Positions 284 through 26,098 of a DNA stretch of 64,000 nucleotides are shown in pieces (position 1 is the first letter of the stretch; the number at the start of each line of letters is the position of its first letter). The notes under the pieces are model-generated. The model was not told the origin of the DNA. It worked only from the letters and a program-made list of their open reading frames with translations, and ran no database searches. The DNA is taken from contig CAYVYJ010000005.1 in the NCBI GenBank assembly GCA_964455085.1, positions 21,239 through 85,238 of the forward strand, read 5' to 3'. The DNA is from an uncultured Planctomycetia bacterium. Lineage in GTDB: Bacteria; Omnitrophota; Gorgyraeia; Duberdicusellales; 4484-171. The translations under genes were made by a program, and so were the position numbers.

Positions 284-354
284 TGCACCCTGATTTCTTG
301 GCCCGGAAAATAAAAATTTTAGGTTATTATTCCGCGTAAAACCTAAAGTTAATT

Positions 355-570: not shown

Positions 571-639
571 TAATCCTTAACTTCCAAAGAACAGATTTAT
601 TCTATCTTTCTTGATTGTCTTGTCAATATTTTTTTATCC

Positions 640-11065: not shown

Positions 11066-12565
11066 TTAGAAATAAAGGTCACGGGCGCCCCGCTTAATCC
11101 GCTGATAATAACTTTTAAGCTTTGGGTAAATTTTTGGCATTGAAAACTTTATTGCCTCTAACTCATCTTTGATTACCTTCTCACCTTGCTTTTGAGTTTC
11201 CTCAGTAGCAAAATCATCCAGCCACTCTCTGAAGGTAAGTACCGCATTTAACTTACAAAGCTTTCCCTCTTCCCCGGTCTTTAAGAGTTCCATAATACAC
11301 TTGCCGGTTCTTCCGCAGCGGTAACCAGCCGTACAAAAAGAAGTAATATAGCCTAAAGAAGCTAACTCTCTTATTAGTTCGTCTAAACTGCGGGTATCAC
11401 CTAAGAAAAATTGCTGCCGCTGACCTTCCTGCTCAGCATAACAATCACTGTAAGCACCGATTCCAATCCGGGTCGAAGCATCAGTTTGAGTACAGCCTAA
11501 GGAAATAGTCTCTCTTCGTATTTGGGCACTTTCCCGGGCAGTAAGAATCATCCCGGCATGGGGTATAGCTAATCTGATAACTGTAATTAACTTTTTAAAA
11601 TCCTGATCACTAACTTTATAGCCTGACTCCTGGGTAAAGGGTGTATTAGCCGCTGGTTCAAGTCGCGGGAAAGAAATTGTATGGGGACCTACACCAAAAC
11701 GGTTCTCTAATTCCCGGGAATGCAGGAGAAGGCTTAAGACTTCGAACCGCCAATCGTAAAGACCGAAAAGAACACCAATACCGACATCATCGATTCCAGC
11801 CTCAAAGGCCCGATGCATACAATATAATCGCCACTGATAATCTGCCTTAAGCGTCCCTTGGGGATGAACTTCTTGGTAGGTCTGGGGATGATAAGTCTCC
11901 TGAAACACCTGATAAGTACCTATACCAGCCTGCTTAAGCTGCTTAAGATCTTCAGTTGATAAAGGCGCAGCATTAACATTAACCCGACGAATCTGGCCAT
12001 AGCCTTTTTTGGTCTTGGCCTTTACTCCATAAATTGTTTCAATAGTTGAAGCCATATAATCTATATCAGTCTGAGGATGTTCTCCGTAAACTACGATTAG
12101 ACGCTTATGTCCGATTTGACCAGCTAAAACCTCTGTCTCTCTTCTTACCTCATCCTGACTAAGGACTTTTCTCTGAACCTGTAAATTATCTCTTCTGAAC
12201 CCGCAGTAAAAACAATTATTTAGGCAAAGATTGCCGAGGTATAAAGGGGCAAAGGTAACAATTCGATTATCGTAGACCTTTTTTTTAACTTCTCCGGCAA
12301 CTTCGGCCATCTGGTCCCAAAGCTCTTTATCTTCAACTCTCAGCAAGGTTGCTGTCTGCTCCAAGGTCAGAGTCTGGATAGCTAAGGACTTAGCTAAGAT
12401 ATCCTTAACCTCTCCCTCTGAGACCTTTGATTTAGAGACTAAAGCCCGATTAATTGATTCCTGATCGATAAAGTGTCGACCCTGATTCAGGTATTTCTCT
12501 ATCTGAGCTGGTTTTATCTGCCTTTCGGCCCAGGAATCTAAACTAGTGGTCTTAATCTGCATCAA
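11066..12565 (-). CDS. hydG: [FeFe]-hydrogenase-type radical-SAM maturase HydG (tyrosine lyase family)
   Basis: 499 aa, longer than ThiH. The radical-SAM motif is CLNNCFYCGF. The C-terminal auxiliary-cluster region SFCTAGYRCGRTGKCIMELLKTGEEGKLCKLNAVLTFREWLDDFA resembles the HydG signature (CTAxYRxGRTG..FME...C.xNA). Confidence 0.8.
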   Translation of the reverse strand: MMQIKTTSLDSWAERQIKPAQIEKYLNQGRHFIDQESINRALVSKSKVSEGEVKDILAKSLAIQTLTLEQTATLLRVEDKELWDQMAEVAGEVKKKVYDNRIVTFAPLYLGNLCLNNCFYCGFRRDNLQVQRKVLSQDEVRRETEVLAGQIGHKRLIVVYGEHPQTDIDYMASTIETIYGVKAKTKKGYGQIRRVNVNAAPLSTEDLKQLKQAGIGTYQVFQETYHPQTYQEVHPQGTLKADYQWRLYCMHRAFEAGIDDVGIGVLFGLYDWRFEVLSLLLHSRELENRFGVGPHTISFPRLEPAANTPFTQESGYKVSDQDFKKLITVIRLAIPHAGMILTARESAQIRRETISLGCTQTDASTRIGIGAYSDCYAEQEGQRQQFFLGDTRSLDELIRELASLGYITSFCTAGYRCGRTGKCIMELLKTGEEGKLCKLNAVLTFREWLDDFATEETQKQGEKVIKDELEAIKFSMPKIYPKLKSYYQRIKRGARDLYF

Positions 12566-13221
12566 ATCACCCGATTTTTCTCCGCTCTTCGCTTAGTAAG
12601 AAAAATTAAGCTCTCCAGTTCCGAAGCCATATCCACATCCGATACCGATACAGTTTGAGGAACTTTCAGCACAATCGGTGCAAAATTTAAGATACCTTTT
12701 ATTCCTGATGAGACCAGTTCATCGGCAATCTTCTGAGCAACTTCCGGCGGTGTAGAAATTATGGCAATTTTAATATTTTCTTTTCTGATAATGCGCTGCA
12801 TCTGTTTTACATGGCTAATCTTTACCCCTTTCCTGGCTCTTCTAACTTTATCTTTGTCAATATCAAAGGCCAGAGTTATTTTAAGATTGAATTTGGAAAA
12901 CCCCTCAAAGCCTAAAAGAGCGCTTCCTAATCTTCCTATGCCTACTATAGCAATTCTCCGTTCTTGATCTAGGCCTAAGATAGTTTCAATCTCCTGGGCT
13001 AACCTTTCGACATTATAACCGACACCCCGCTTACCAAAACCACCAAAGAAAGAAAGATCCTTCCTGAACTGCGCCGGACTAACATTAAGAAATTTGGTCA
13101 GTTTAGCGGAAGATATAACATCAGTATTCTGAGCTTTTAACCGCTTTAAATTCCTCAGATAAATACTGAGACGCCTAATCGCCTCTAAGGAAAAATTATT
13201 TTTATTGTTTCGTTTCTTCAT
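12562..13221 (-). CDS. rex: Redox-sensing transcriptional repressor Rex
   Basis: It has an N-terminal wHTH and a C-terminal Rossmann motif IVGIGRLGSALL, and is 219 aa. Its stop overlaps the hydG start as ATGA, and its start overlaps the hydE end. Confidence 0.85.
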   Translation of the reverse strand: MKKRNNKNNFSLEAIRRLSIYLRNLKRLKAQNTDVISSAKLTKFLNVSPAQFRKDLSFFGGFGKRGVGYNVERLAQEIETILGLDQERRIAIVGIGRLGSALLGFEGFSKFNLKITLAFDIDKDKVRRARKGVKISHVKQMQRIIRKENIKIAIISTPPEVAQKIADELVSSGIKGILNFAPIVLKVPQTVSVSDVDMASELESLIFLTKRRAEKNRVI

Positions 13222-14533
13222 CGAGTAATTCCCTACTAACTCCTAAATCTGTAGGCGCCCGACCTAAAGATTTAAGCAAAGATATTGCTTCTTTAATCTG
13301 GATATTTATCAACTCCTTACTATGAGCCTTATTAGGATAAATTTCATAATGCTGGCGGTATTTAATCGGAGTAAGGTTAAGCATCAGGGAATTAGCGCCA
13401 GCTAACAACCCTTCTCTGCGGGCTGTAGGCATCACAGTCTCTAAGGCTGTAGTTATTAAAATCTTAGCTCTTTCTGGATCAATAAACCTTGCTAAAGCCA
13501 AGGTTTTTAAGACTAACTCTGGTGTAGGAGCCTTAAAGCTTCCCAAGGGGGATCTGGGATGGGGCAGGAAAGGTCCCAAGGAATACATCTCAGCTCCTAA
13601 GACTTTAGTCAAATAGATATCATTTATAATATCTTCGGCACTTTGGCCAGGTAGGCCAATAAGAGCCCCAGTCATAATCAAGTAGCCAATTTCAGCGGCT
13701 CGCCTAATATGGGCTAATCTGGTATCTAGTTTCTGTCCGGGATGAAGATCAGCATAAATTTTTGGATTAGAGGTTTCGAAACGCATAAGCATAGCTCTGG
13801 CTCCGGCCTGATAGAGAGTGTCTAGAGCCTCTAATCCTACTTCACCAAAACTGATACAGATTAACACCGCAACTCTTTCTTTAATTCTTCTGATAATTGA
13901 AGCTAATTCTTCAGCAGCCAAATAAGGATCCTCACCGCTCTGTAAGACCAAAGCCTGAAATCCATACTTCTCGACTGCCTCAGTAGCAGTATCAATTATT
14001 TCCTCAGGTCCCATCCGGTAACGCAGAAGTCCTTTATTATCGGCTGATATACCACAATAAGCGCATTGACGCTGGCAATGGTTAGAAATCTCGATTATCC
14101 CGTGAATACAGCAGGAATTTTTATGGTACTTCTGACGCAGGAAATTAGCTGATTTATAAATCAGCTTAAGCGATTGTTGATTATCTAAATTAATTAAGTA
14201 TAATAACTCCTCTTTTTTTAAAGAACGGTTTTCTAAAGCCTTGTCCAGGATAAGCCGTAGTTTCTTATCATCAACTCCTTTATCAAGATCCAGGCGCGAT
14301 AGCCGCAGATCAACATCCTGAAGTTGAAAGAAAAGTTCTTGCCAGGCTTCCAAGATTTCCTTTGCTTCATCTTCCTTAACCTTTTTTATCACAAATCCCC
14401 CCTGGGCACAGATATAATCCCCGCGATTAATATTATAAAACTCATTAATCGCTTTTTTTTCTTGGCCAAAGTAGTCAACAATGACTTGTTTACCTTTAAT
14501 ATCCTTTACCCTTCCGGGAATCGCATAACACAT
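13202..14533 (-). CDS. hydE: Fusion protein: N-terminal HypC/HupF-like domain of about 80 aa plus the radical-SAM maturase HydE
   Basis: The N-terminus MCYAIPGRVKDIKGKQVIVDYFG...GDYICAQGGFVIKKVKEDEAKEIL carries the HypC signature (MCxAIP, essential Cys2, VDFGG, GDYVLVHVGFA). Residues 140-443 align closely with HydE, through IIEISNHCQRQCAYCGISADNKGLLRYRM, VLQSGEDPY, RFETSNP and GLPGQ...GPFLPHP. Confidence 0.8.
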   Translation of the reverse strand: MCYAIPGRVKDIKGKQVIVDYFGQEKKAINEFYNINRGDYICAQGGFVIKKVKEDEAKEILEAWQELFFQLQDVDLRLSRLDLDKGVDDKKLRLILDKALENRSLKKEELLYLINLDNQQSLKLIYKSANFLRQKYHKNSCCIHGIIEISNHCQRQCAYCGISADNKGLLRYRMGPEEIIDTATEAVEKYGFQALVLQSGEDPYLAAEELASIIRRIKERVAVLICISFGEVGLEALDTLYQAGARAMLMRFETSNPKIYADLHPGQKLDTRLAHIRRAAEIGYLIMTGALIGLPGQSAEDIINDIYLTKVLGAEMYSLGPFLPHPRSPLGSFKAPTPELVLKTLALARFIDPERAKILITTALETVMPTARREGLLAGANSLMLNLTPIKYRQHYEIYPNKAHSKELINIQIKEAISLLKSLGRAPTDLGVSRELLDEETKQ

Positions 14534-14545: not shown

Positions 14546-14788
14546 CTATTCACAGTCAAATGCGACAACTTCAATTCTTAAACTAGGGAAGAAAATAATC
14601 TCCAGCTTTGCGTCTTTAAGAATAGTATTCTTAGCCAGTATGGCAAAGGTCTGGCGAAATGAATCTTCCTTAACGCCGGTAAGCTCTCCAATCTTAAGCT
14701 GAACCCGGGTTACGGTTTTTGCTCCTTCTTCTTCAGCATGTTTAGCTATCCCCTTGATGATCGGCACAATCAGATGAGTCTCATGCAT
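14546..14788 (-). CDS. hypA: HypA-like hydrogenase nickel-insertion protein, truncated to the N-terminal Ni-binding domain with no zinc finger
   Basis: It has the MHE N-terminus and a KIGELTGVKEDS core. The ORF ends ...AFDCE with a TAG stop exactly where the first CxxC of the HypA zinc site would begin. The hypC::hydE RBS and start follow 12 nt later. Confidence 0.65.
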   Translation of the reverse strand: MHETHLIVPIIKGIAKHAEEEGAKTVTRVQLKIGELTGVKEDSFRQTFAILAKNTILKDAKLEIIFFPSLRIEVVAFDCE

Positions 14789-15287
14789 TGGATGACTCCC
14801 TAATCAATCTTGCCACTTCCCCTAGGGTCTGCTTCAGGCTAGGTGAAAACTCAGACCCTAACTCGATTGTTTTCGGCTGAACCCCAAGCATATAAATACC
14901 AGCTTCAGTCTCCTTAGTTAAACATTCCATAAACATTGCCGGAGATATGTCATGGGTAGTAAATCCGCACTTTATGATATCATCTTTTTCTAAAATCTCA
15001 TACTCCCCGGGATCTCTTCCTAAATGCACGGCATCAATAATTAAAACTGTATCGGGTTTCTCTTTAATAATCTTACCGATATAATTCTCCGGTGCCGACC
15101 CAGCATCTAAACAAACTGCTTTAGTCTTCCCCTTTATCGCCTCAATAAGAACTGGTCCAAAACCATCGTCGCCGCGGATAATATTACCGATGCCGACAAT
15201 AACAACCTTTCCTTTGAGTATACTTTTCAATTTGTCTTTCATTGTGATTAAGTATTCAGAGTAGTTTCCCGACGGCATCTGGCGCAA
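14781..15287 (-). CDS. hycI: Hydrogenase maturation endopeptidase (HycI/HybD family)
   Basis: The motif VVIVGIGNIIRGDDGFGPVLIEAI is present and the length is 168 aa. Confidence 0.8.
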   Translation of the reverse strand: MRQMPSGNYSEYLITMKDKLKSILKGKVVIVGIGNIIRGDDGFGPVLIEAIKGKTKAVCLDAGSAPENYIGKIIKEKPDTVLIIDAVHLGRDPGEYEILEKDDIIKCGFTTHDISPAMFMECLTKETEAGIYMLGVQPKTIELGSEFSPSLKQTLGEVARLIRESSNA

Positions 15288-15856
15288 AGAATCTTTACCC
15301 GGTCAGAACGTCCCTGATCCTTTAGGACTGATATGATGTTCTCATCGACTATGCCCAGATTTTTTAGGCCGGCGAGATAAAGTGTGGGGCTGGAAAAACT
15401 GAGCTCACCAAGTCTCTGGTTAATCCAATTCAGGTGGTCAGAGCAAGCAATCGTCTCGCCGCAAATCTCACAAAGCTGCAGTTTCTTCTCGATCTGCTCT
15501 GAAGCTTCACTACGGTTAAAAAAGGAAAGTTCCCAATCACCGGATAACTTAATGCCCTGATTATCGGCAATACAAGCAGCTTGGCACTGGCCGCAGAATA
15601 TACAGGTATCAGTATAGTGAATCATAGCTCTGCGGGGGTTATCTTTATCATTAACGATATCAATATTACCAATTGCTTCTACCGGACAAACTTCTTTACA
15701 GGCCAGACAACCAACACATTTATCCTGATCAAATTTAGGTTGACCCCGAAAATTAGGATGAGCTTTGTGGGGCTCAATGGGAAACTTGGAAGTATAGGGA
15801 CCTTTTATAAGAGCTTTTATTGCTTCAATTAACTCTCTAATCTTGGGTAGTTTCAT
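15248..15856 (-). CDS. NuoI/HycF/MbhN-like 2x[4Fe-4S] subunit with an extra C-terminal Cys-rich tail
   Basis: Two cluster motifs are present, CVGCLACKEVCP and CIFCGQCQAAC. An additional CEICGETIACSDH...CARCRRE lies at the C-terminus. Confidence 0.75.
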   Translation of the reverse strand: MKLPKIRELIEAIKALIKGPYTSKFPIEPHKAHPNFRGQPKFDQDKCVGCLACKEVCPVEAIGNIDIVNDKDNPRRAMIHYTDTCIFCGQCQAACIADNQGIKLSGDWELSFFNRSEASEQIEKKLQLCEICGETIACSDHLNWINQRLGELSFSSPTLYLAGLKNLGIVDENIISVLKDQGRSDRVKILCARCRRETTLNT

Positions 15857-15889
15857 TCCACTTCTCGTTTATTTATAACTTACAACAGT

Positions 15890-16252
15890 TTAGGCCTCTC
15901 CCTCTTTATCTTCAAGATACTTATCAACAACACTCCTCTCCCAAAGTTTTACTCCCGACCGATGTGCGCCCCTGGCAATGGCATGGGCTGCAACCGGAGA
16001 AGTTAGTAGGAGAAAAATCATGCATAAGAGGGCTTTCATCCCGGCAGCTGTGGGACCAGCCACAAGAAAGGCCCCAAACAAAATACTACAGGTACCTAGA
16101 GTAACACACTTGGTAGCTGCCTGCAGACGGTTATAGACATCGGGAAGACGCACTAGGCCTAAGGCACCGATAAGATCAAAAACTAATCCTAAACTAATAA
16201 ATATTAAACCAAGAGAACTACTCATCAAAACTCCTTCCTTAAATGAGACCAC
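15890..16252 (-). CDS. mrpG: Mrp antiporter subunit G-like (MbhC-like)
   Basis: The MnhG-like sequence LIGALGLVRLPDVYNRLQAATK is present. The likely true start is MSSSLG at 16225, which follows AAGGAAGGAG. Confidence 0.7.
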   Translation of the reverse strand: MVSFKEGVLMSSSLGLIFISLGLVFDLIGALGLVRLPDVYNRLQAATKCVTLGTCSILFGAFLVAGPTAAGMKALLCMIFLLLTSPVAAHAIARGAHRSGVKLWERSVVDKYLEDKEGEA

Positions 16253-16340
16253 AATTTATGGAACGAAGTGAACATAAATTGTACGGTCGAATTTATCCTG
16301 AGCGAAGCGAAGGATCTTCTATTCATCAAAACTCCTTCCT
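16221..16340. repeat. 20-bp direct repeats (tcatcaaaactccttcctt) at 16221..16240 and 16321..16340 flank an 80-bp insert that contains a perfect 10-bp-stem hairpin at 16251..16282
   Basis: The repeated sequence encodes both the mrpF C-terminus plus stop and the mrpG RBS plus start. The insert forms the acaatttatg-N12-cataaattgt hairpin. Confidence 0.55.
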
Positions 16341-16705
16341 TCTAAATACTTGGAAAATGCTAAGGTGCTTATAAAACTCTGCAAGGCCCAGGCTATTCCA
16401 ATATCAATATACCAAGATCTCTTGGTAGAAATAGTCAACACTGCACATATTCCCACAACCATAATACCTAAAATATCAATAGCTACTATCCTATCAGCAC
16501 CAGTAGGCCCTTTACAAATACGATAAAGACAGAGAAGGCAAGCCAAAATAAGTATGTAGAGAGCGCGACCTAGGAAACCCAAATAAGGAAGGTCGGGACA
16601 AAAAAGGAAAGGAAGTGGCCGGATTATAATCATACCAACAATCCCGGTTAAAACAATTACTCCAATGAACCATGGCTTCTTTATCATCTTATCCCCTTTA
16701 ATCAA
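16319..16705 (-). CDS. mrpF: Mrp antiporter subunit F-like (MbhB-like)
   Basis: The MnhF-like core CLYRICKGPTGADRIVAIDILG is present. Confidence 0.7.
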   Translation of the reverse strand: MIKGDKMIKKPWFIGVIVLTGIVGMIIIRPLPFLFCPDLPYLGFLGRALYILILACLLCLYRICKGPTGADRIVAIDILGIMVVGICAVLTISTKRSWYIDIGIAWALQSFISTLAFSKYLEGRSFDE

Positions 16706-17195
16706 AAATTTTCTCTAATATTTTTTCAAAACGCTGGACAATGATTTCGGTCGCTTCTTGAACATCCTTTGCCTTCACATTAATCCAGTGTATATACAAA
16801 ATACCTTTATCGCGATCAATATCCACACTCATTGTACCGGGAGTTAAAGTTATTGAGTTAGCTAAGAATGTTAAAGCGGTATCGCTCTTTAAAGCTGTCT
16901 TTACTTTAACAATTCCCGGATTTATCGGTAGCTGTGGATGCAAGACTCGATAGGCAACGTCAATATTTGCTTTGATAACTTCCCACAAAAATACTGGCAA
17001 ATAATAGGCGAAGAAATATAGGTAACGTAAAGGATGTTTTAGCAGATGAGGCCGAGTGATAAATAAATCTCCGGTTAAAATAGTTACCAGAACAGCAACA
17101 AAAATTCCGGCTATAAGATGTTGAGTGTCCGGCACCCAACTTAGCAGGGACCAGATTACAAATGCTATTAAAAGTAAAACTACTCTGCTCTTCAT
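16698..17195 (-). CDS. mrpE: Mrp antiporter subunit E-like (MbhA-like)
   Basis: 165 aa with MnhE-like topology and size. It overlaps its neighbours, consistent with translational coupling. Confidence 0.6.
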   Translation of the reverse strand: MKSRVVLLLIAFVIWSLLSWVPDTQHLIAGIFVAVLVTILTGDLFITRPHLLKHPLRYLYFFAYYLPVFLWEVIKANIDVAYRVLHPQLPINPGIVKVKTALKSDTALTFLANSITLTPGTMSVDIDRDKGILYIHWINVKAKDVQEATEIIVQRFEKILEKIFD

Positions 17196-18700
17196 TGATT
17201 TATCTGGGTTAAAACTAAACTACTATATTTACTGCTTTCTAAAAGAACACCTGAGGCCGGCTGCAGAAAAACTTCTTTTACCCCGGAGGCAAACAAAACT
17301 CCTCCTAGCAAACAAATAAATGCTAATATTAGCATCGAGAGCTTCATCAACGCCGGTACTTCTTTCACTTGGCGCCACCTCTGGCTTAAGTTTCCAAAAA
17401 AAGCATATTTCATAACCTTAACATACATAGCTAAAGTTAATACACTAACTAAAACCAGCCAAAAAGCATACCCATAGTGACCAGCTTCTACGGTTGCCAG
17501 TATAATAAATAGCTTGCTCCAGAAACCACTAAAAGGGGGAACACCGGCGACAGACATAGAAGCAGTTAAATTAGTTAGGCAAGTTAAAGGCATCTTTTTT
17601 CCTAAACCGCCCATCTTTTGTAAATCCCGGGTTCCGGTAGCATATTCTACCGCTCCCGAATTTAGGAATAGAAGCGATTTAAATACTGAGTGATTAAAAA
17701 GATGAAAAAGTCCAGCTAATATACCTAAGGGTGTACCTAAGCCAATAGCCAGAACAATATAACCTACCTGGCTTATCGAGGAATAAGCCAAGAGTCGCTT
17801 AAAATCCCATTGTCCTAAAGCCAGTAATCCTCCGACCACCATAGATATTACCCCCAAGAACATTATTATTGAAGATAGTTCTCGGGTCATCCCTAATAGA
17901 TTATAGAATATTCTAATTAAAGCATAGATTCCCAGCGATTTTATCAATACTCCTGAAAGCATGGCTGATATTGGGGCCGGAGCTGAAGGATGAGCATCAG
18001 GCAACCAAGCATGAAAAGGAACCAGGGCAGCTTTAAGACCAAAACCCATTAAAAATAAAACGCTCACCAGAAGAACCAGGTTAGTAGCCGGTTCTTTAGC
18101 TAAAATAGCCCCCATATCAGCAATATTTAAAGTGGAAGTTAAGCCGTACAAAAGGGCAATGCCTAAAAGGATAAACAAAGACCCTACTGTACCCATAATC
18201 GCATATTTAAAAGCAGCTTCTAACTCATGACGTTCAGTTCCAAAAGCAACCAAAGCATAACTTGCCACCGAAGCAATTTCCAAAAATACAAAGAGATTAA
18301 ATATGTCGCCGGTAATAATCACTCCGTTCATTCCAGCCAACATTAAAAAAAAGAGTGAATAGAACTTCCACTTGGAAGTATACTTTTCCATATAATTTAT
18401 TGAATAGATTACGATGATGAATGCCACTAAATTTACAGTCACTAACATAAATGCAGTTAAACCATCCAAAACCAAGCCGATACCTACCGGTGGTTTCCAA
18501 TTTCCCACGCTATAGACAAGAATCCCCTGATTATTACGTAAGAAGACACTTAAAAAAGATAAAATACAGAGAACAAAAGCAGCTAAAACTCCTAATAGAT
18601 CCGGTGCTGGTTTTATTTTCTTTCCCAGAAGAGAAGTTAAAAAGGCTGCTCCCAAAGGTATAACTACAAATAATGGTATTATGTTAGCTGACGGATTCAT
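17192..18700 (-). CDS. Mrp subunit D / NuoM/N-like proton-pumping antiporter subunit
   Basis: 502 aa and polytopic. The NuoN/MrpD-family GGLAL...HAWLPDAH region is present. Confidence 0.8.
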   Translation of the reverse strand: MNPSANIIPLFVVIPLGAAFLTSLLGKKIKPAPDLLGVLAAFVLCILSFLSVFLRNNQGILVYSVGNWKPPVGIGLVLDGLTAFMLVTVNLVAFIIVIYSINYMEKYTSKWKFYSLFFLMLAGMNGVIITGDIFNLFVFLEIASVASYALVAFGTERHELEAAFKYAIMGTVGSLFILLGIALLYGLTSTLNIADMGAILAKEPATNLVLLVSVLFLMGFGLKAALVPFHAWLPDAHPSAPAPISAMLSGVLIKSLGIYALIRIFYNLLGMTRELSSIIMFLGVISMVVGGLLALGQWDFKRLLAYSSISQVGYIVLAIGLGTPLGILAGLFHLFNHSVFKSLLFLNSGAVEYATGTRDLQKMGGLGKKMPLTCLTNLTASMSVAGVPPFSGFWSKLFIILATVEAGHYGYAFWLVLVSVLTLAMYVKVMKYAFFGNLSQRWRQVKEVPALMKLSMLILAFICLLGGVLFASGVKEVFLQPASGVLLESSKYSSLVLTQINQ

Positions 18701-19041
18701 CCTCTTAACTCCCGAATTTTAGTAATATCAAAAGTACCATATTTCTCATATATCCTCATGGCAATAGCAACTAGTAAGGCAGTAGTAGCCAGACCAATAA
18801 CAATAGCCGTGAGCACCAAAGCATGGGGCAGGGGATCAACCATATTAGAGGCAGAAATATCTCCTTGGGGAGAAAATATCGGCGCTCTACCTTTGATACG
18901 ATAAGCTACCAAGATAAAAAACAAATTAGCGGCATACTCAGATATGATCACCCCGACAATAATCTTAATTATATTACGCTTCCTTAAAATACAATAAAGA
19001 CCGACACAAAAAAGCCCTAAACAAAGTAAATATACAATCAT
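18697..19041 (-). CDS. Mrp subunit C / NuoK-like (MbhG-like)
   Basis: 114 aa with three TM helices; similar to MnhC. Confidence 0.7.
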   Translation of the reverse strand: MIVYLLCLGLFCVGLYCILRKRNIIKIIVGVIISEYAANLFFILVAYRIKGRAPIFSPQGDISASNMVDPLPHALVLTAIVIGLATTALLVAIAMRIYEKYGTFDITKIRELRG

Positions 19042-19541
19042 TCTTTCTTCTCCGGTTCTAGCTTTAACAAAACTAAAGCAACGAATATTGCAAAAAGCCC
19101 GGCGCCGACCTTAAGGCATATCGCTATATTACAAAGAGGGATTATGCCGGCCGAGAATAAACTAAAAACTTTGCCCTTAGCTATGAAATTTAAGAAAAAA
19201 TAACCCCCAGTAAATCCAAGCAGAGCTATGGTCAAAAATAATAAGGCACCGGTGCTTTCAAAAAACGAGACTGCTTTCTTTGGTAAACGCTTAAAAACTA
19301 CCTCTTTACCGTAAGCAAGCATAAGATGAATAAAAGAAAGAGCAATAATAACCCCTCCAGCAAACCCTCCTCCCGGTGATAGATGACCATGGGTAACTAT
19401 ATAAATACCATAAAGAAGTATTAACCCCACCGTAAGACGAGTAATTGTTTTAACAATAACTGACATGCCTTTTTCGTGTTCTCTACTCATCTTCTTCCTC
19501 TGGCGCCTCCCCCGGTCTCCTCCTGCCGATTCTGCGCACAA
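19038..19541 (-). CDS. MnhB-domain membrane subunit (MbhE/F-like)
   Basis: The MnhB motif HLSPGGGFAGG is present. The true start is probably the internal MSVIVK near 19466; the N-terminal 25 aa of the track ORF overlap the upstream gene. Confidence 0.6.
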   Translation of the reverse strand: MCAESAGGDRGRRQRKKMSREHEKGMSVIVKTITRLTVGLILLYGIYIVTHGHLSPGGGFAGGVIIALSFIHLMLAYGKEVVFKRLPKKAVSFFESTGALLFLTIALLGFTGGYFFLNFIAKGKVFSLFSAGIIPLCNIAICLKVGAGLFAIFVALVLLKLEPEKKE

Positions 19542-20031
19542 TAGCTAAAACACCAATTACAGCAGTGAACAATATCGTAGCCTCCCCCAGGGTATCATAA
19601 GCTCTAAAATCCAATATCACTGAAGAAACAACATTAGCTGCCCCGGTTTGAGATAAGCCTTGGTTAAGATAAGCTCTTGCAACCTTCATAACGGGATATC
19701 CGAATTCCGGCAATTCCCTTAAAGCTTTGACCGATATAAACAAAAATACAGCAATAAAAGCTGTAACGATAAAAGTGTTCAGTAACCATCTCCCGGTTGT
19801 TGAAAAAGGAATATCTTTTCTCAAAGTAGCTCTAATCAAAATAATCAAACACAATATCTCAACAACCAGCTGGGTAATGGCTACATCCGGTGCTTTAAGT
19901 ATTAAAAAGACTATGGAAAGCCCTAAACCTACAGCTCCCACAGCTATTACTGAGGAAAGAAGATCCTTTAACTCAGTGGCAACAATTGCCCCAACAATCA
20001 TAAATATTAGTAAAATATATAACTCAAACAT
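19483..20031 (-). CDS. MrpB-like subunit (DUF4040 plus MnhB domain; MbhD/E-like)
   Basis: The MnhB domain VVSSVILDFRAYDTLGEATILFTAV is present. Confidence 0.65.
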   Translation of the reverse strand: MFELYILLIFMIVGAIVATELKDLLSSVIAVGAVGLGLSIVFLILKAPDVAITQLVVEILCLIILIRATLRKDIPFSTTGRWLLNTFIVTAFIAVFLFISVKALRELPEFGYPVMKVARAYLNQGLSQTGAANVVSSVILDFRAYDTLGEATILFTAVIGVLAIVRRIGRRRPGEAPEEEDE

Positions 20032-20034
20032 TGT

Positions 20035-21690
20035 TTAGCCCCGTAAAATGTAAAAAATCATTATCATAGCTAAAAGACACCAAGCCAAATATGTAGGAAG
20101 TACGCCATTGTGAACGTAACGTAATATCCTGATAAAAACAAAAGTTACCCTTCTGCTTAAATCGTAAAGATCGAAAACTTTTTTCTCAGCTAATTTATAA
20201 ATGGCCTTTAAAATCCCTATTTCCTGGATTGTATTGTAAAACTCAGTTCCTGAAACCCGCATATCTAGGTGTCTTCTTAAATCCTCACCGCCTACAAAGC
20301 CTGCTGTTTCCCTTATTTTGGCAGCTTTGCCTAAAAGATAGATTACCATCCCAATTGCAATTCCCACAATTATTAATAACGTGGCTAAGCTTACGTTCCA
20401 GATACCAAGAAATTCTACCCCGCCCCCTAAACTGGGGAAAATAAACATCTTAAGCGGAATCTGATAGGCAAAAACTCCAAAAATAACACAGAGTGAGGCT
20501 AAGAAGACTTGAGGAAACCACATATTTGGTCCAACATCCTTTAGGACTTTACCAGCGATCCCTGACTCTGAAGACGGCTGGCCTAAAAATACAGCATGGA
20601 TTAATTTCATAAAACTAGCTAAAGTAAGGGCGCTACCAAACATAGCCGCGGTTAGCCAAATTACCCATAGGTATCCTCCGCTCTTGGCGGTTTCAATTAT
20701 GCCCTGATAAATCATCCACTTAGAAGCAAATCCATTAAAAGGTGGTACTCCTGATATAGCTAAGGACGCTAACAAGAAGGCTCCAAAAGTAATCGGCATA
20801 ACTTTAGCCAAACCACCTAATTTTTCTAAATCACTTGTTCCAGCTTTCTTTTCTACCGCCCCACCGCCCAAAAAGAGACAAGATTTATAAATAGTATTAT
20901 TGAGCATATGAAACAGGCCCCCAGCAATACCCAAGAGACTGCCGGTACCAATACCCAAAACCATATACCCCACCTGACTTACGGCATGATAACCTAAGAG
21001 TCGTTTTAGGTCATGTTGAATTAAGGCCATCATAACTGCCGCCACAATAGTAATACTACCTACCAGCATTAAAAAAGTATTCATACCTTTATCCATCTGA
21101 AAAATATTTAAAGACAATCTGACTAAGAAGTAAATACCCAGAAGCTTATCTAGAGAAGCTGGCAGAAAGGCAGCCACCGGAGTCGGCGCATCTTCGGCGG
21201 TATCAGGCACCCAGGTATGAAAAGGCATAGCGCCAGCTTTAGCAAAAGCACCGGCAGCCAGACAAAGATAAGCCCAGACAGCTATCTTACTATCTAAAGC
21301 AATGTTTAACGTATCCATCTGCGCTACTCCTGATAGCTTCCAAACCAAGGCTAAACCCAAAAGCATAAAAGCGTCAGTGCCACCGATTATTATAAAAGCC
21401 TTTTTTGCCGTAGCCGGAGTCTTATCGCTCTTACCAAAACTGATTAAAAGGTATAAGAGTAAACCTAAGAAACCCCAGAAGACCATAAACAAAATAAGAT
21501 TGTTAGAAAAGACAGCACCTAAGGAAACAATAAAGGTAAGCACTATATATAGGTAATAACGAAACAGTCCTTTGCTTCCACGCATAAAGCCTAATGAGTA
21601 GCTAACCGTAAGGATAGTGAATATCCCGATAAATATACCTACAAAACCGGAAAGTTTATCGATCTTAAATAACTCGCCTGCTAAGTTCAT
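20035..21690 (-). CDS. MrpA/D / NuoL-like antiporter subunit (MbhH-like)
   Basis: 551 aa and polytopic. The NuoL/MrpD-family core (HTWVPDTAEDAPTPV) is present. Confidence 0.8.
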   Translation of the reverse strand: MNLAGELFKIDKLSGFVGIFIGIFTILTVSYSLGFMRGSKGLFRYYLYIVLTFIVSLGAVFSNNLILFMVFWGFLGLLLYLLISFGKSDKTPATAKKAFIIIGGTDAFMLLGLALVWKLSGVAQMDTLNIALDSKIAVWAYLCLAAGAFAKAGAMPFHTWVPDTAEDAPTPVAAFLPASLDKLLGIYFLVRLSLNIFQMDKGMNTFLMLVGSITIVAAVMMALIQHDLKRLLGYHAVSQVGYMVLGIGTGSLLGIAGGLFHMLNNTIYKSCLFLGGGAVEKKAGTSDLEKLGGLAKVMPITFGAFLLASLAISGVPPFNGFASKWMIYQGIIETAKSGGYLWVIWLTAAMFGSALTLASFMKLIHAVFLGQPSSESGIAGKVLKDVGPNMWFPQVFLASLCVIFGVFAYQIPLKMFIFPSLGGGVEFLGIWNVSLATLLIIVGIAIGMVIYLLGKAAKIRETAGFVGGEDLRRHLDMRVSGTEFYNTIQEIGILKAIYKLAEKKVFDLYDLSRRVTFVFIRILRYVHNGVLPTYLAWCLLAMIMIFYILRG

Positions 21691-22871
21691 TTAATACCCA
21701 ATTTACTTTTTATCTTTGCGGTCTTCTCCTGAGAGAGCCGGATTAAGTCTTCTCCGCCATAGAGCTTCTTACCCCTGGTATCACGCACAGCCATCCTTTC
21801 GGTACAACAATAGCAAGGATCAATAGCGGCAAAAATTATCGTAGCATCAGCTATAGTCTGGCCAACAACAGTTGATTTATAAGTTGGTAGATTCATAAAG
21901 GTTGGTGCCCGTATCTTATGGCGAGCCGGCCGGTTAGTGCCGTCACTGACCAGATAATGAAAACACTCTCCTCGGGGAGCCTCAATCTGGCCGATTCCTT
22001 CTCCGGGAGGAATACTTTTAATATTCGCGTCAATATCACCTCCAGGCAGATTTAGGAGACAGTGTTTTATTATCTTTACTGACTCAAAAGTCTCTAAAAT
22101 CCTTACTACAGCTTTATCAAAAACATCACCGTTTGAGGTCACGATCATCTTCCAATCAACTTGATCATAAGCTCCGTAAGGGCAATCTTTTCTTAAGTCT
22201 TTGGCTACTCCTGAGGCCCGGGAAGTTGGCCCGAGAGCTGAATAATCTATGGCTTCTTCTTTAGTGAGAACACCGACCCTCTTGGTTCGGGCATGCAGGA
22301 CCGGATCGTCAATAACTGCCTTTTTAAGCATTGTCAATGTCGGTATAATTGAATCGATTTTCTTAATAACCCCGGGGATATCACTGGATTTTATATCTCT
22401 TCTTACCCCTCCTGGTTTAAACATAGCGTAATTATTTCTATTACCCGCTAAAACCTCCATTGCATCCAAGATCTCTTCTCTTAACTTCCAGGCCCACATA
22501 TAAACAGTATTGTAGCCTAAGAAGTGACCGGCTAAACCCAACCACAAAAGATGTGAGTGTATTCTCTCGCCCTCAGCAATTATGGTCCGAATATACTTAG
22601 CCCGCGGTGGTACTTCTATCGGTATCACATCCTCAACGGCCCGGGTATAAGCAAAAGGGTGACTGGTAGAGCAAATACCGCAGATTCTTTCGACAACAAA
22701 AGTAGATTGGTCAAAGGTCTTCATCTCAGAGAGTTTTTCAATACCCCGGTGATTATAACCAACCTCGACATCAACCCCTACGATTTTCTCACCTTCTACA
22801 GTAAGAGTGAAAAACTCCGGTTCTTCCTGCAGGGGATGATAAGGCCCTATCGGTACTATTGTTCTAGCCAT
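21687..22871 (-). CDS. [NiFe] hydrogenase large subunit, group 4 (NuoD-like; MbhL/EchE/HycE-type)
   Basis: Both metal-binding motifs are present: N-terminal RICGICSTSH (RxCGxCxxxH) and C-terminal DPCYCCTER (DPCxxCxxR, the group-4 variant). The length is 394 aa. Confidence 0.85.
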   Translation of the reverse strand: MARTIVPIGPYHPLQEEPEFFTLTVEGEKIVGVDVEVGYNHRGIEKLSEMKTFDQSTFVVERICGICSTSHPFAYTRAVEDVIPIEVPPRAKYIRTIIAEGERIHSHLLWLGLAGHFLGYNTVYMWAWKLREEILDAMEVLAGNRNNYAMFKPGGVRRDIKSSDIPGVIKKIDSIIPTLTMLKKAVIDDPVLHARTKRVGVLTKEEAIDYSALGPTSRASGVAKDLRKDCPYGAYDQVDWKMIVTSNGDVFDKAVVRILETFESVKIIKHCLLNLPGGDIDANIKSIPPGEGIGQIEAPRGECFHYLVSDGTNRPARHKIRAPTFMNLPTYKSTVVGQTIADATIIFAAIDPCYCCTERMAVRDTRGKKLYGGEDLIRLSQEKTAKIKSKLGIK

Positions 22872-23344
22872 TACACTCCTCTATCCCTAATTGCATTCTT
22901 ATCCCACTCTTGATAATCCCGACGCAAAGGATACACGCCTTCCGGCCAATCATCAGGCAAAAGCAGCCTTTTTAAGTCCGGATGACCCTTAAATTTTATC
23001 CCTAACATCTCGTAAATTTCTCGTTCAATCCAATTAGCAGCTTTAAATATCGGAGCAAGAGAAGCAATTTCCAGTTTACTTTTATCAAGTTTTATTCGTA
23101 AAGAAAGTACGAAATTCATAGCATCAAAGGTAAAGTGATAGAGAATCTCCATGTGCGAACGGGCATCTAGACCCGAGGCGATGCTAAACCTGGCTCCTAA
23201 GTCTTTAAAGGTATAGCTGGCTATTTTAGTTAAAGCAGCAGGTTTAATCTCCAGATATACCCGTTTAGAAGATTTATCGTTAAGCTCAATAATATCTTCC
23301 TTAAATCTTTGGCTTATGTTCTTTAAAACCGCGTCTTTATCCAT
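22871..23344 (-). CDS. NuoC-like subunit (MbhK/HycE N-domain-like)
   Basis: 157 aa, belonging to the 30-kDa-subunit family. Confidence 0.7.
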   Translation of the reverse strand: MDKDAVLKNISQRFKEDIIELNDKSSKRVYLEIKPAALTKIASYTFKDLGARFSIASGLDARSHMEILYHFTFDAMNFVLSLRIKLDKSKLEIASLAPIFKAANWIEREIYEMLGIKFKGHPDLKRLLLPDDWPEGVYPLRRDYQEWDKNAIRDRGV

Positions 23345-23784
23345 TATTTACCCTTTTCTTCAATCGTGCTTTCAACCTTTCCGATCAGCTTAACTACACC
23401 GGCAATAATTGCTTCTGGTTTAGGTGGACAACCAGGGATGTAAACATCAACAGGAATAATCTTATCCACCGGAACCGGACAATTATAACTGTGAATGAAC
23501 ATCCCCCGGGACAAAGAGCACTCTCCGATTGCCACCACCAGACAAGGCTTAGGTATCTGCTCATATAACCTCTTCACCCTCTCCATTGACTTTCGGTTAG
23601 CTGAACCAGTAACTAAAAGAACGTCAGCGTGTCTTATGCTCCCGGCTAAAATCATTCCAAATCTTTCAATATCAAACCGGGGAGTAAGACAATCCAATAT
23701 CTCAATATCACAATTATTACAGCTTCCAGTAGCAAGATGGAAGACCCAAGGTGATTTTAATAGTGCTTTTAATTTTAGGCTCAT
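23344..23784 (-). CDS. [NiFe] hydrogenase small subunit, group 4 (NuoB-like; MbhJ/HycG)
   Basis: The four cluster cysteines are present: ATGSCNNCDIE, GECSLSRGMF and YIPGCPPKPEAI. Confidence 0.8.
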   Translation of the reverse strand: MSLKLKALLKSPWVFHLATGSCNNCDIEILDCLTPRFDIERFGMILAGSIRHADVLLVTGSANRKSMERVKRLYEQIPKPCLVVAIGECSLSRGMFIHSYNCPVPVDKIIPVDVYIPGCPPKPEAIIAGVVKLIGKVESTIEEKGK

Positions 23785-23785
23785 T

Positions 23786-24709
23786 TTACTTTCCGTTTAA
23801 GGCTAAAATCACCGCTAACCCAGCAATTATAGTCATTGGACCCCAAAAGAACCGCATTGCTTGACCAATTTTTACCCGCGGGTTAGTATTTCTAATAACT
23901 GTTATCAGTGCTACTAATCCCAGGTACTTTAAGGCTCCCAGAATTAAACCTATCCCAGTGAATTTTAAACCGCCCATAAGAAGAATCATTATGAAAAAAG
24001 GTAAGACAAATAAAAGCATATTTTTAGTAAGTCGATAGAGGGCTAAGGCGGTACCGGAATACTCGATTAAAGGTCCGCCGATTATCTCGGTCTCAGCCTC
24101 TGGGATATCAAAAGGGACTAAAGCTAACTTTGCCTGCATACAAATTATAAGAACAATAAACGCCAATACCCCGGATAGATTCCCCAAGATTACTCCCTGT
24201 TGAGCTTGAAAAGTTATAATCTGGCCTAAACTTAAAGAATAATTGGATTTTATAACCGGGACTAATATTGCTAAAACAAAGGGAAGCTCATAGCTTAAGA
24301 TCAGCTTCATCTCCCGCGATGCCCCGATACTTGCTAAGGGATTACGCGAAGCAAAACCACCCAGAATAATGCTCATCGAAGGGATGGTTAATAAATACAA
24401 TACTACAATCAAATCTCCCAAAAAGCTCTTATCCGGCCAAATATTGTTTAACCAAAGAAGAGTCGATACTAAAATTACACTGGCAAAACCAATAACTGGA
24501 GCAATTAAAAAAGTTAACTTTGACGAACCAACCGGTACCAGAGTCTCCTTACCAAGAAGTTTTACGATATCGATCAATGGCTGCAACAGAGGCGGACCAA
24601 CTCGATATTGAATCCGGGCAGTGACCTTCCGGTCGACCCAACTAGCTAAAAGCCCGATAATGACCGTTGATGCAAACCCCAGCACTATAAAATAAAATAA
24701 GTAGATCAT
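23786..24709 (-). CDS. NuoH/HycD/MbhM-like membrane subunit
   Basis: 307 aa. The N-terminal NuoH-family motif is RKVTARIQYRVGPP. Confidence 0.8.
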   Translation of the reverse strand: MIYLFYFIVLGFASTVIIGLLASWVDRKVTARIQYRVGPPLLQPLIDIVKLLGKETLVPVGSSKLTFLIAPVIGFASVILVSTLLWLNNIWPDKSFLGDLIVVLYLLTIPSMSIILGGFASRNPLASIGASREMKLILSYELPFVLAILVPVIKSNYSLSLGQIITFQAQQGVILGNLSGVLAFIVLIICMQAKLALVPFDIPEAETEIIGGPLIEYSGTALALYRLTKNMLLFVLPFFIMILLMGGLKFTGIGLILGALKYLGLVALITVIRNTNPRVKIGQAMRFFWGPMTIIAGLAVILALNGK

Positions 24710-25272
24710 GCTTTTTCTCTATCCCAGTGGGTTGAATGGACAATTAGATTCTCTCCCACTAAGAAGGTATTTGAATCAAGCTCAACGTCGCCTGGTTTTA
24801 AACTTAAGGCACCGTAGCTGCAAGTCTTTATACATAAAGGTTCCTGGTCAAGATCCCTGCGATCTAAACAAAAGTCACAATTATGGATTAAGTAAGGGAC
24901 GTTTTCAGGATATATCGATCCATAAGGACAGGCATGAGAACAGGATTTACAACTTACACAACGCATATTATGCCGGATGAGAAGCTTATCTTTATCTTGC
25001 TGTTGTTCTAAGGCTTCAAAGGGACAGGCTCCGACACAATGCGGTTCTTCGCAGCGGCGGCAGACTAAAGCATAGGTGGCTAGCTCAGCTACCGAGATAA
25101 TACCGTTGTTGCCGGGATCTTGAGGATGATAAAAATAACTGCACTCAATCAAACAATCCTTACATTGGCCAGAAGCGCAGACGTCCAGATCAATAAATAG
25201 CCGCCTGTCTCTTCCTCTCCCAGCTTTTAAATTTAATTTACCTTGGTGTAGTTGTTCAGCGCTTGAGCTCAT
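24706..25272 (-). CDS. HycB/HydN-like polyferredoxin (multiple 4Fe-4S motifs)
   Basis: 16 cysteines arranged as CxxCxxCxxxCP-type repeats (CRRCEEPHCVGACP, CVSCKSCSHACP, CDFC...CIKTCSYGAL). Confidence 0.7.
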   Translation of the reverse strand: MSSSAEQLHQGKLNLKAGRGRDRRLFIDLDVCASGQCKDCLIECSYFYHPQDPGNNGIISVAELATYALVCRRCEEPHCVGACPFEALEQQQDKDKLLIRHNMRCVSCKSCSHACPYGSIYPENVPYLIHNCDFCLDRRDLDQEPLCIKTCSYGALSLKPGDVELDSNTFLVGENLIVHSTHWDREKA

Positions 25273-25273: not shown

Positions 25274-26098
25274 TTAGTCCCAAATTTCGTGAAAATCTTT
25301 TATCTTATCGTAAGTAAAGACCGGACCGTCTTTGCAAGCATAGTAAGTCCCAATCCGGCAATGCCCGCACTTACCAATACCACAAGACATGTTCTTCTCC
25401 ATTGAAAGGTAAATATTCTCATCCTTAAACCCTGATTCCAAGAGCTTAAAAGTAACGAATTTCATCATTATCGGCGGTCCGCAAACCACAGCAACTCCTC
25501 TTTCACAGTCCATGGCTAAACCATCCAGAATTGTGGTTACCAGTCCCACATGGCCCTTCCACTTCTCATCACCCTTATCTACGGTAAGCCTTAAATCTAA
25601 ATCGTCTCGCTTTGCCCAATCGCTGACTTCACGCTTATAAACCAACTCCTGAGGGTTTCGACAACCACCTCGAAACAATAGTTTTTTAATTTCCCCTCTT
25701 ATTGTAAAAAGAGTATAGATAAGACTGCGTAAAGGAGCAAAACCAACCCCACCACCAATAACCAAAACTTCCCGGTCTTTAAACTTATCCAGTGGGTAAC
25801 CCAGACCTAAGGGACCTCTTACTCCGATAGAGGTGCCTTTCTTAAGTTCATGAATCTTATCGGTAACCTTACCAACCTTCATTACAGTTATTTCCATCGT
25901 ATCCTTTACTGATGGCTTTGAAGAGGGAGTAAAAGGGGCTTCTCCTACGCCAGGGATAGTCACTTCGATGAATTGACCAGTAGAAAAGCTTAGCGCTTCT
26001 TTAGGTTTAAATTTTATAGTCTTTATGGTCGGTGTCTCATCAATAACCTCAAGAACCTTAGCTTCGATCGAACGATAAGGATTTTTACATTTAGACAT
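25274..26098 (-). CDS. AsrB/PyrK/sulfhydrogenase-gamma-like FAD/NAD(P)-binding oxidoreductase with a C-terminal 2Fe-2S
   Basis: It has an FNR-like fold with the motif VIGGGVGFAPL and a terminal CGIGKCGHCRIG...CKDGPVF. Confidence 0.75.
   Translation of the reverse strand: MSKCKNPYRSIEAKVLEVIDETPTIKTIKFKPKEALSFSTGQFIEVTIPGVGEAPFTPSSKPSVKDTMEITVMKVGKVTDKIHELKKGTSIGVRGPLGLGYPLDKFKDREVLVIGGGVGFAPLRSLIYTLFTIRGEIKKLLFRGGCRNPQELVYKREVSDWAKRDDLDLRLTVDKGDEKWKGHVGLVTTILDGLAMDCERGVAVVCGPPIMMKFVTFKLLESGFKDENIYLSMEKNMSCGIGKCGHCRIGTYYACKDGPVFTYDKIKDFHEIWD

Follow-up and report, generated by a model that had tools for sequence, protein, structure and literature searches.

A HypC-like domain fused to a distinct HydE-type radical-SAM protein in [NiFe]-hydrogenase operons of Omnitrophota and other anaerobic bacteria

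A protein in which a HypC-like chaperone domain is joined to a HydE-type radical S-adenosylmethionine (SAM) barrel is encoded in a group-4 [NiFe]-hydrogenase operon of an uncultured Omnitrophota bacterium, on a 64,000-nucleotide (nt) stretch of contig CAYVYJ010000005.1 (positions 21,239 to 85,238; hereafter, the window). The fusion gene follows genes for the maturation endopeptidase HycI and a shortened HypA, and precedes genes for the redox-sensing repressor Rex and for HydG, the tyrosine lyase otherwise paired with HydE. HydG and the fusion are proposed to build or deliver an Fe–CO/CN unit for the [NiFe] hydrogenase of the same operon, with a probability of roughly 0.55. This proposal draws on the linkage to [NiFe] genes, the existence of triple fusions, an unfused member of the same HydE subtype, the loss of a key histidine (His51) from the HypC-like domain, the lack of nearby HypD, HypE, HypF, and HydF, and the tight packing of the operon (overlaps of 4–20 nt) behind one Rex operator.

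The 443-residue open reading frame (ORF) named in an earlier, sequence-only reading of the window is present on the reverse strand (Table 1), and its N-terminal region does score as HypC, as had been claimed. Residues 1-64 match the Pfam family HupF_HypC (PF01455) with an E-value of 5.2e-13 and 49.4 bits against a cutoff of 28.5, and the NCBIfam model hypC_hupF (TIGR00074) is passed marginally, at 48.9 bits against a cutoff of 48; the crystallized HypC 2Z1C in the Protein Data Bank (PDB) matches the fused domain at E 1e-10. The MCYAIPG start, which contains Cys2, is invariant in all 117 complete N-termini of fusions (117/117), and the Met-Cys N-terminus is also kept in the type-2 and triple fusions. 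The HypC-like domain is N-terminal in every fusion, so that Cys2 always stays at the N-terminus. Two further motifs, DYFG and GDY(I/V)xAQGG, are likewise invariant. The agreement with HypC is not complete, however: the sequence-only reading had reported a match in full, and this holds for Cys2 and MCYAIPG but not for the GDYVLVHVGFA core that it quoted, since the segment reading GDWVLVHVGFA in HypC is GDYICAQGGFV in the window's fusion, with Gln in place of the key His. The equivalent of E. coli His51 is an invariant Gln44 in type-1 fusions and Thr or Tyr in type-2 fusions, whereas His occupies this position in all three solved HypC/HupF proteins. In HypC, Cys2 is essential and H51 is conserved as a possible Fe ligand in the HypCD complex; mutation of these residues abolishes activity and cofactor content, and HypC uses its N-terminal cysteine to bring Fe(CN)2CO to the apo large subunit (PMC12134894, a 2025 review). 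Because His51 has been lost, the fused domain is, judging from its residues, unlikely to be an ordinary HypD partner.

The remainder of the protein carries a Pfam Radical_SAM domain (residues 147-304) with the cluster motif CX3CX2C at C153-x3-C157-x2-C160. As the sequence-only reading had it, this part belongs with HydE rather than with PylB or BioB: residues 96-406 score 245 bits with the HydE model (TIGR03956), far above the 148 bits of PylB and the 106 bits of BioB (all NCBIfam), and Thermotoga maritima HydE aligns with it end to end (E 5e-68). The description as a complete HydE is apt for the full-length fold but not for a typical HydE, given that the score is a near miss relative to the equivalog cutoff of 254.6 bits and that a different set of signature residues is present. 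When 128 fused proteins were compared, over their HydE halves, with 104 HydE-like proteins that stand alone, 36 of the 38 HydE positions conserved at ≥90% were kept in the fused proteins, including Met224 and Met291. At positions 52, 54, 154, and 289 (T. maritima numbering), however, 120 of the 128 fused proteins show a C-H-R-S signature in place of the x-R-D-V of canonical HydE—that is, the near-invariant Arg54, Asp154, and Val289, together with position 52, have been systematically switched. These positions correspond to C142, H144, R246, and S382 of the window's fusion. No cysteines were found at the position of HydE's second cluster in the alignment to T. maritima HydE. By these signature positions, the HydE part is a sharply defined subtype, unlike typical HydE.

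This subtype also occurs outside the fusion. P0142 (L175:1-2693) is a complete, unfused C-H-R-S protein. Its gene begins over the stop codon of a gene for a [NiFe] large subunit (...YDPCMSCAAH...), a HydG-like gene comes next, and the 4.5-kb contig shows no HypC domain. Because the unfused gene lies between a [NiFe] large subunit and a HydG-like gene, the HydE subtype itself, beyond the fusion, tracks [NiFe] enzymes. Conversely, two triple fusions, HypC-HydE-HydG, were found: P0123 (906 residues; L008:10001-12721) and P0129 (881 residues; L011:10001-12646). Both adjoin group-3b-type [NiFe] genes, with no [FeFe] gene nearby. A separate 803-residue protein, P0143, is a HydE-HydG fusion without a HypC domain and has the canonical H-x-R signature.

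An AlphaFold2 model of the window's fusion, built with 45 homologues as input, has a mean predicted local distance difference test score (pLDDT) of 90.3 and a predicted template modeling score (pTM) of 0.89. In the model, a five-stranded barrel (residues 7-52) leads into a long helix (54-78), which a weaker segment (81-90) connects to the HydE barrel. Its top Foldseek match is T. maritima HydE, with a target-normalized template modeling (TM) score of 0.91-0.96 and 38% identity. Within the linker, W64, F68, L71, D75, and S79 are invariant across fusions. The model suggests that the HypC-like domain and the HydE barrel form a rigid single unit.

The fusion is widespread. The identical protein was found on three independent contigs, and the same architecture in more than 120 clusters of 58-100% identity, mainly in metagenome-assembled genomes (MAGs) of Omnitrophota. 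At the 50% clustering level, an exhaustive search of 1.84 billion representatives yielded about 20 with the fused architecture, the most distant at 37% identity. Scanning of one genome per GTDB species with the fusion-specific N-terminal region located the fusion in at least 401 species genomes, and more than 537 further fusion contigs were found in Joint Genome Institute (JGI) metagenomes. According to record titles, the hosts include Omnitrophota, Margulisiibacteriota/Saganbacteria/WOR-1, Elusimicrobia, Caldatribacterium (Atribacterota), Auribacterota, and Brevinematales; in public annotations, the protein is labeled "HypC/HybG/HupF chaperone," "HydE," "radical SAM protein," or "biotin synthase." One carrier is the Ace Lake contig Ga0208648_1000132 (L159), which is absent from the published Ace Lake supplements. 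The suspicion raised in the sequence-only reading that a sequencing or assembly frameshift had merged separate hypC and hydE genes can be dismissed almost with certainty, given the three contigs, the recurrence in hundreds of independent assemblies and genomes, the conserved linker, and the confident single-chain model.

In the window, the operon extends from about 27131 to 11066 and is flanked by lipopolysaccharide (LPS)-biosynthesis genes and housekeeping genes; its features are collected in Table 1. Pfam and NCBIfam assignments bore out the neighbors named in the sequence-only reading, namely the [NiFe] genes, HycI, a zinc-finger-less HypA, Rex, and HydG. The large subunit carries a C-terminal extension of about 35 residues past DPCYCCTER and has the features of a group-4 membrane-bound [NiFe] hydrogenase. 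The Mrp/Mbh set comprises two MrpD-like antiporter subunits, MbhD/E, MnhB, NuoK-like, MnhE, MrpF, and MnhG proteins, and the three electron-input genes also precede the hydrogenase in L178, L179, and L181. The short HypA covers model positions 1-66 of 112, without the zinc-finger half, and scores 58.1 bits with TIGR00100 against a cutoff of 88.1. Gene junctions are either overlapping or 12-14 nt wide; rex shares 20 nt with the fusion gene and 4 nt with hydG. The palindrome TTGTGAATAAAATCACAA is the sole site in the 64 kb with at most one mismatch to TTGTGAAnnnnTTCACAA, and a TTGACA/TATGGT promoter-like pair lies upstream of it. With rex inside the operon and this operator-like site ahead of it, the hydrogenase and its maturases would be expressed under redox-sensing autoregulation.

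Table 1. Features of the fusion gene and the surrounding [NiFe]-hydrogenase operon (window coordinates).
Feature	Position	Strand	Evidence or remark
HypC–HydE fusion ORF	13202..14533	-	443 aa
HypC-like beta-barrel (fusion residues 1-64)	14342..14533	-	profile matches, alignment, AlphaFold2 model
Conserved helical linker (fusion residues 65-95)	14249..14341	-	alignment, AlphaFold2 model
HydE-like radical-SAM barrel, C-H-R-S subtype (residues 96-443)	13202..14248	-	profiles, alignments, Foldseek
HydG-type radical-SAM tyrosine lyase	11066..12565	-	TIGR03955, 454 bits (cutoff 312)
Rex redox-sensing repressor	12562..13221	-	NCBIfam Rex, 255 bits; between fusion and HydG
80-aa HypA, Ni-binding N-terminal half	14546..14788	-	MHE start; Pfam HypA (PF01155), E 1.9e-15
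HycI-type large-subunit C-terminal endopeptidase	14781..15287	-	Pfam HycI, E 2.5e-14; TIGR00072, 108.9 bits (cutoff 47.45)
Mrp/Mbh-type membrane subunits and NuoI-like protein	15248..21690	-	identical gene order in L004, L006, L178, L001-L003
NuoI-like 2x[4Fe-4S] protein	15248-15856	-	Pfam labels of homologous loci
Group-4 [NiFe] hydrogenase core (whole)	21687..24709	-	Pfam/NCBIfam, homologous loci
[NiFe] large subunit	21687-22871	-	NiFeSe_Hases and Complex1_49kDa domains; RICGIC and DPCYCCTER motifs
NuoC-like	22871-23344	-	group-4 core
Small subunit	23344-23784	-	group-4 core
NuoH-like	23786-24709	-	group-4 core
Electron-input module: Fer4_11 protein	24706-25272	-	Pfam
Electron-input module: FAD/NAD and DHODB-type Fe-S protein	25274-26098	-	Pfam
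Electron-input module: Fer4_22 protein	26091-27131	-	Pfam
Rex operator-like palindrome TTGTGAATAAAATCACAA	27190..27207	.	near-perfect; ~60 nt upstream of first operon gene

The same linkage was observed in a survey of 80 GTDB and 80 metagenome loci with about 2.0 Mb of flanks, in which the ORFs of the GTDB loci were clustered without prior labels before a seed census was run over both sets. The commonest gene order is [NiFe] structural genes, HycI, the 80-residue HypA, the fusion and, in some loci, Rex and HydG. Among the 56 well-flanked loci (≥6 kb on either side of the fusion), a [NiFe] large subunit was found in 53: the four-subunit group-3b type accounts for 29 of these, group 4 for 23, and 1 is of another kind. 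HydG is present in 39 of these loci, and a [NiFe] large subunit without any [FeFe] gene in 45. Among the 80 GTDB loci, HycI was found in 59, Rex in 41, and the short HypA in 37-49. The linkage spans three unrelated [NiFe] architectures: the group-4 Mbh/Mrp type, the four-subunit group-3b type, and a Tat-associated enzyme (L059/L007), at which full-length HypA and HypB are present and none of HypC, HypD, HypE, or HypF is. Look-ups seeded on the hydrogenase recovered the fusion and HydG in 2/3 cases. In L183, a distant MAG labeled Pseudomonadota, the fusion stands alone, with a HydG-like gene 4.5 kb away that adjoins HypA. Two recurrent genes of these loci may be mentioned in passing: a 98-residue ORF upstream of the Fer4_22 gene (L073:5136-5432 and four other group-3b loci; cluster c42), the MHDTHLL... 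start of which recalls the HypA N-terminus, and a membrane protein of about 240 residues (c39) with an HxxxxDH-like motif, resembling nickel permeases by eye only.

The canonical accessory genes are missing from these neighborhoods. As the sequence-only reading had stated for hypD, hypE, hypF, hydF, and hydA, none of these genes, nor hypB, was found among the Pfam-scanned ORFs spanning 872-58246 of the window, where a few small ORFs were left unscanned; the last ~6 kb, a ribosomal-protein region of short ORFs, lies outside that scan. HypB was likewise absent from 159 of the 160 related loci. Seeds from E. coli gave zero matches to HypD, HypE, or HypF in the 160 loci and their flanks. These seeds are sensitive enough, because the corresponding HypA and HypC seeds do find the short HypA and the fused domain in the same loci. 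Furthermore, six-frame translations of the 80 GTDB loci contained no HypD motifs, and no HydF motif or HydF-like GTPase was found among their ORFs. A large-subunit search for sister operons with canonical hyp genes returned only matches within a clade of 82-100% identity. We estimate that HypD, HypE, and HypF are missing from a substantial part of the fusion-bearing genomes.

The partner HydG aligns over its full length with Thermoanaerobacter italicus HydG (E 1e-135) and keeps the His of the dangler Fe. Its auxiliary-cluster motif, FCTAGYRCGRTGKCIM...C, has the spacing C-x5-C-x5-C-x13-C rather than the canonical CX2CX22C. In this variant, FCTAGYRC(G/N)RTG(K/E)CIM...C, the second Cys has become Gly and two new Cys have appeared, giving four Cys instead of three. 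The four-Cys motif could fully ligate the HydG cluster, or could replace the free-cysteine bridge to the dangler Fe by a protein thiolate. Its carriers include L004, L006, L007, and 20+ GTDB loci; of 13 group-4 loci, 12 have it, as do some others, and it is confined mainly to group 4. The idea that it is universal to the system was rejected, as CX2C is retained in both triple fusions and in the majority of group-3b loci.

Canonical HydG makes [Fe(Cys)(CO)2(CN)] and is the one known anaerobic enzyme making Fe-bound CO and CN. HydE then adenosylates the cysteine sulfur and removes the carbon backbone, leaving a mononuclear Fe(CO)2(CN)S on a Met thioether, the further fate of which has been described as an open puzzle. 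The steps that we infer for the present system start from what is observed directly, namely domain composition, conservation, subtype signatures, and gene linkage. HydG would cleave tyrosine and assemble an Fe-carbonyl-cyanide unit on its auxiliary cluster. The HydE-type barrel would accept this unit and remove the carrier ligand by 5′-deoxyadenosyl-radical chemistry, as canonical HydE does, to give a mononuclear Fe(CO)x(CN)y species. Instead of dimerization and transfer to HydF, Cys2 of the attached HypC-like domain would capture the fragment and, in the manner of HypC, pass it on to the apo large subunit. The 80-residue HypA would then insert nickel and HycI would clip the C-terminal extension, with the whole operon presumably under the single Rex operator. 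The C-x-H near the radical-SAM loop, the Asp-to-Arg and Val-to-Ser exchanges, and the rearranged HydG motif may tune the hand-over or the ligand stoichiometry.

Several observations weigh against this proposal. HydG yields Fe(CO)2(CN), but the [NiFe] site is Fe(CO)(CN)2, and thus an extra ligand-exchange step must be assumed. The retention of 36 of the 38 conserved HydE positions fits unchanged HydE chemistry. In 13 of 155 loci, the fusion has a group-A6 [FeFe] hydrogenase encoded a few genes downstream, in the order Rex, histidine kinase, GltD, HydA, NuoE-like protein, response regulator, and HydG. Among the well-flanked loci, eight of 56 contain [FeFe] HydA, always alongside a [NiFe] large subunit, and three have no hydrogenase nearby. 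An Elusimicrobia Mbh operon lacks the fusion in the available sequence, in which the contig ends 1 kb past HypA. With respect to the host groups, Atribacteria nearly always hold both NiFe 3b and FeFe A3 enzymes, and V. archaeovorus holds both 4g and A3. Because both enzyme types are present there, HydE/HydG must serve the [FeFe] enzyme in some hosts, possibly additionally. Finally, in the accessible part of a published survey, Omnitrophota genome 231 has hypACDEF, a protease KEGG Orthology (KO) entry, and Mrp, with no K03150 or K01012, the ThiH/HydG-like and BioB/HydE-like KOs, respectively (PMC10066038, supplementary file 6).

In the same accessible part, genome 58 has K03150, K01012, and HndD but no hyp KOs, and appears to be FeFe-only (PMC10066038, supplementary file 6). 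The pattern of genomes 231 and 58 hints at mutually exclusive maturation sets, in a KO comparison that covers about three Omnitrophota genomes of that survey. Omnitrophota MAGs from Ace Lake that have a 4g or a 3b enzyme, and that may carry the fusion, have been reported without another hydrogenase. No [FeFe] HydA was found to share large contigs with window-type fusions, a weak negative given that the approach picked up only 3 of 8 positive controls. In some hosts, the module may serve [NiFe] and [FeFe] enzymes alike.

The [FeFe] enzymes themselves have a feature of their own. Prototypical [FeFe] hydrogenases have TSCCP in the L1 motif. In eight loci (L035, L040, L046, L063, L065, L075, L082, and L089; e.g., L065:8790-10601), the "group A6" HydA, which is accompanied by a GltD-like subunit, has TSCSPGW instead, which we take to place Ser at the proton-relay Cys position. 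No HydF was found near these eight loci.

How far the proposed pathway extends is a further question. In its strongest form, it would be a complete route independent of HypD, HypE, and HypF, with both CO and CN derived from tyrosine by HydG, processed by the specialized HydE, and delivered by the His-less HypC-like domain; this stronger version is possible but tentative. The sequence-only reading had suggested a hybrid maturation route replacing or supplementing HypCDEF. The tie of the fusion and HydG to the [NiFe] enzyme is strongly supported by the linkage, the triple fusions, P0142, the loss of His51, and the lack of HypD, HypE, HypF, and HydF at the loci screened; replacement of HypCDEF is a more tentative step.

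Among the alternatives, the one that survives best, though we consider it unlikely, is a bifunctional fusion, with the HydE barrel and HydG maturing an [FeFe] enzyme with the help of a HydF encoded elsewhere, and the HypC-like domain serving the [NiFe] enzyme together with HypD, HypE, and HypF encoded elsewhere. The operon position would then merely reflect shared Rex-dependent regulation of hydrogen metabolism. The 13 loci with a downstream group-A6 HydA, the frequent presence of both hydrogenase types in the host phyla, the conserved HydE core (36/38), the scoring of HydG as a true HydG, and the occurrence of canonical Hyp genes in the phylum all agree with such a division of labor. It leaves unexplained, however, the loss of His51 in every fused domain, the C-H-R-S signature, the unfused C-H-R-S HydE between a [NiFe] large subunit and HydG, and the triple fusions beside [NiFe] genes with no [FeFe] gene nearby. 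Moreover, the 80 GTDB loci yielded no HydF, and the 160 loci no HypD, HypE, or HypF. In canonical systems, hypC is usually contiguous with hypDEF. The Ace Lake MAGs reported with a single hydrogenase would also speak against this reading if they carry the fusion.

Alternatively, HydG and the fusion might supply only anaerobic CO, or a pre-carbonylated Fe, to HypD, HypE, and HypF encoded elsewhere, with the cyanides coming from carbamoyl phosphate. Such a supplement would fill an acknowledged gap of the Hyp pathway, the anaerobic CO source, with chemistry that HydG does perform, and would avoid the CO:CN stoichiometry problem. It is nonetheless improbable, as the fused domain is without the His51 used in the HypCD complex, HypD, HypE, and HypF are near none of the 160 loci, and most [NiFe] organisms do without HydG. 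Less probable still is the idea that [FeFe] maturation has in the HypC-like domain a carrier of its own, which would replace HydF or pass the HydE product to HydA and would make the [NiFe] neighborhood incidental. The missing HydF in the GTDB loci screened, including the eight with an adjacent HydA, and the pTM of 0.89, which suggests that the two domains are one unit, are in keeping with it. However, in 45 of the 56 well-flanked loci a [NiFe] large subunit is present without any [FeFe] gene, the genes ahead of the fusion, HycI and HypA, are specific to [NiFe] maturation, and in L183 the HydG-like gene adjoins HypA, a [NiFe]-type partner.

Comparison with known systems places the module between families. 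Like HypC, HybG, and HupF, the fused domain is a small beta-barrel with the essential Cys2 (MCxxxPG) and a C-terminal helix, is encoded with [NiFe] genes, HypA, and an endopeptidase, and presumably carries an Fe unit to the apo large subunit. Unlike them, it is joined to a radical-SAM enzyme, has Gln (Thr/Tyr in type 2) for His51 and no HypD, HypE, or HypF in its neighborhood, and its C-terminal helix is lengthened into the conserved linker. The HydE part shares with T. maritima HydE (PDB 3CIX/7O1O) the fold (TM 0.91-0.96, 38% identity), CX3CX2C, 36 of 38 invariant residues, and a HydG partner, but differs in C-H-R-S, the N-terminal HypC-like domain, the [NiFe] operon setting, the lack of HydF at the loci, and its sub-cutoff score. 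Judged by these residues and scores, the fusion departs from each family at a defining point: from HypC at His51, and from HydE at x-R-D-V and the equivalog cutoff. The partner resembles T. italicus HydG (PDB 4WCX) in full-length homology, the tyrosine-lyase domain, the C-terminal cluster domain, and the dangler-Fe His, whereas the window's protein and most group-4 partners have C-x5-C-x5-C-x13-C, with four Cys rather than three. HypX likewise represents an accessory supply of a diatomic ligand to the [NiFe] Fe site besides the core Hyp proteins; it is, however, an unrelated enzyme that is formyl-tetrahydrofolate/coenzyme A-dependent and oxic, whereas the present module is radical-SAM based and strictly anaerobic. 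Recruitment of a HydE/BioB-like radical-SAM paralogue to another hydrogenase class is also seen in HmdB/HcgA-type proteins of the [Fe]-hydrogenase Hmd, but the fusion scores 70.5 bits with HmdB against a cutoff of 320.9 and has no hmd context.

Several other features of the window lie outside the hydrogenase genes. Just upstream of the operon promoter, a 103-residue predicted membrane protein without a Pfam match (27302-27613, reverse strand) starts with MCYAVPVAG..., similar to the MCYAIPG of the fusion, which is possibly a coincidence; a 97-residue ORF without Pfam matches occupies the equivalent position in L178. A cobalamin riboswitch (344-580, reverse strand; 92.6 bits) and a tRNA-Arg(CCT) gene (784-856, reverse strand), both unrelated to the hydrogenase operon, are the only Rfam/ARAGORN matches in the window. 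Genes for a XerC/D-like tyrosine recombinase, topoisomerase I, and DprA stand in a row at 38650-42395 (reverse strand), between LPS genes and shikimate kinase; this is a usual housekeeping arrangement, and nothing around the hydrogenase operon points to a mobile element. The GC content is flat across the window, at 0.37-0.43.

In the current models known to us, the NiFe(CN)2CO cofactor is made by six Hyp proteins. Searches of 8 million papers and preprints dated up to mid-2026 found neither the fusion nor a role of HydE/HydG in [NiFe] maturation described before. In a 2025 review of [NiFe] cofactor biosynthesis, where the CO ligand comes from under anaerobic conditions is named as the most pressing open question, with no mention of the fusion, of HydG, or of radical-SAM chemistry. 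The module offers a concrete, testable candidate for this source, namely tyrosine-derived CO, and perhaps CN, for [NiFe] enzymes. Experiments are feasible, as Caldatribacterium saccharofermentans, one of the hosts, is reported to have been isolated. If the proposal is true, two hydrogenase maturation systems that have been held unrelated would become linked, and heterologous [NiFe] production could need only the fusion, HydG, the short HypA, and HycI. The inference of hydrogenase capacity from metagenomes would change as well, since the genes concerned are now labeled "biotin synthase," "HydE," or "HypC." If, moreover, the route is independent of HypD, HypE, and HypF, it would represent a second, radical-SAM path to the [NiFe] site in hundreds of anaerobic lineages and an evolutionary bridge between [FeFe] and [NiFe] maturation, which would be a major finding.

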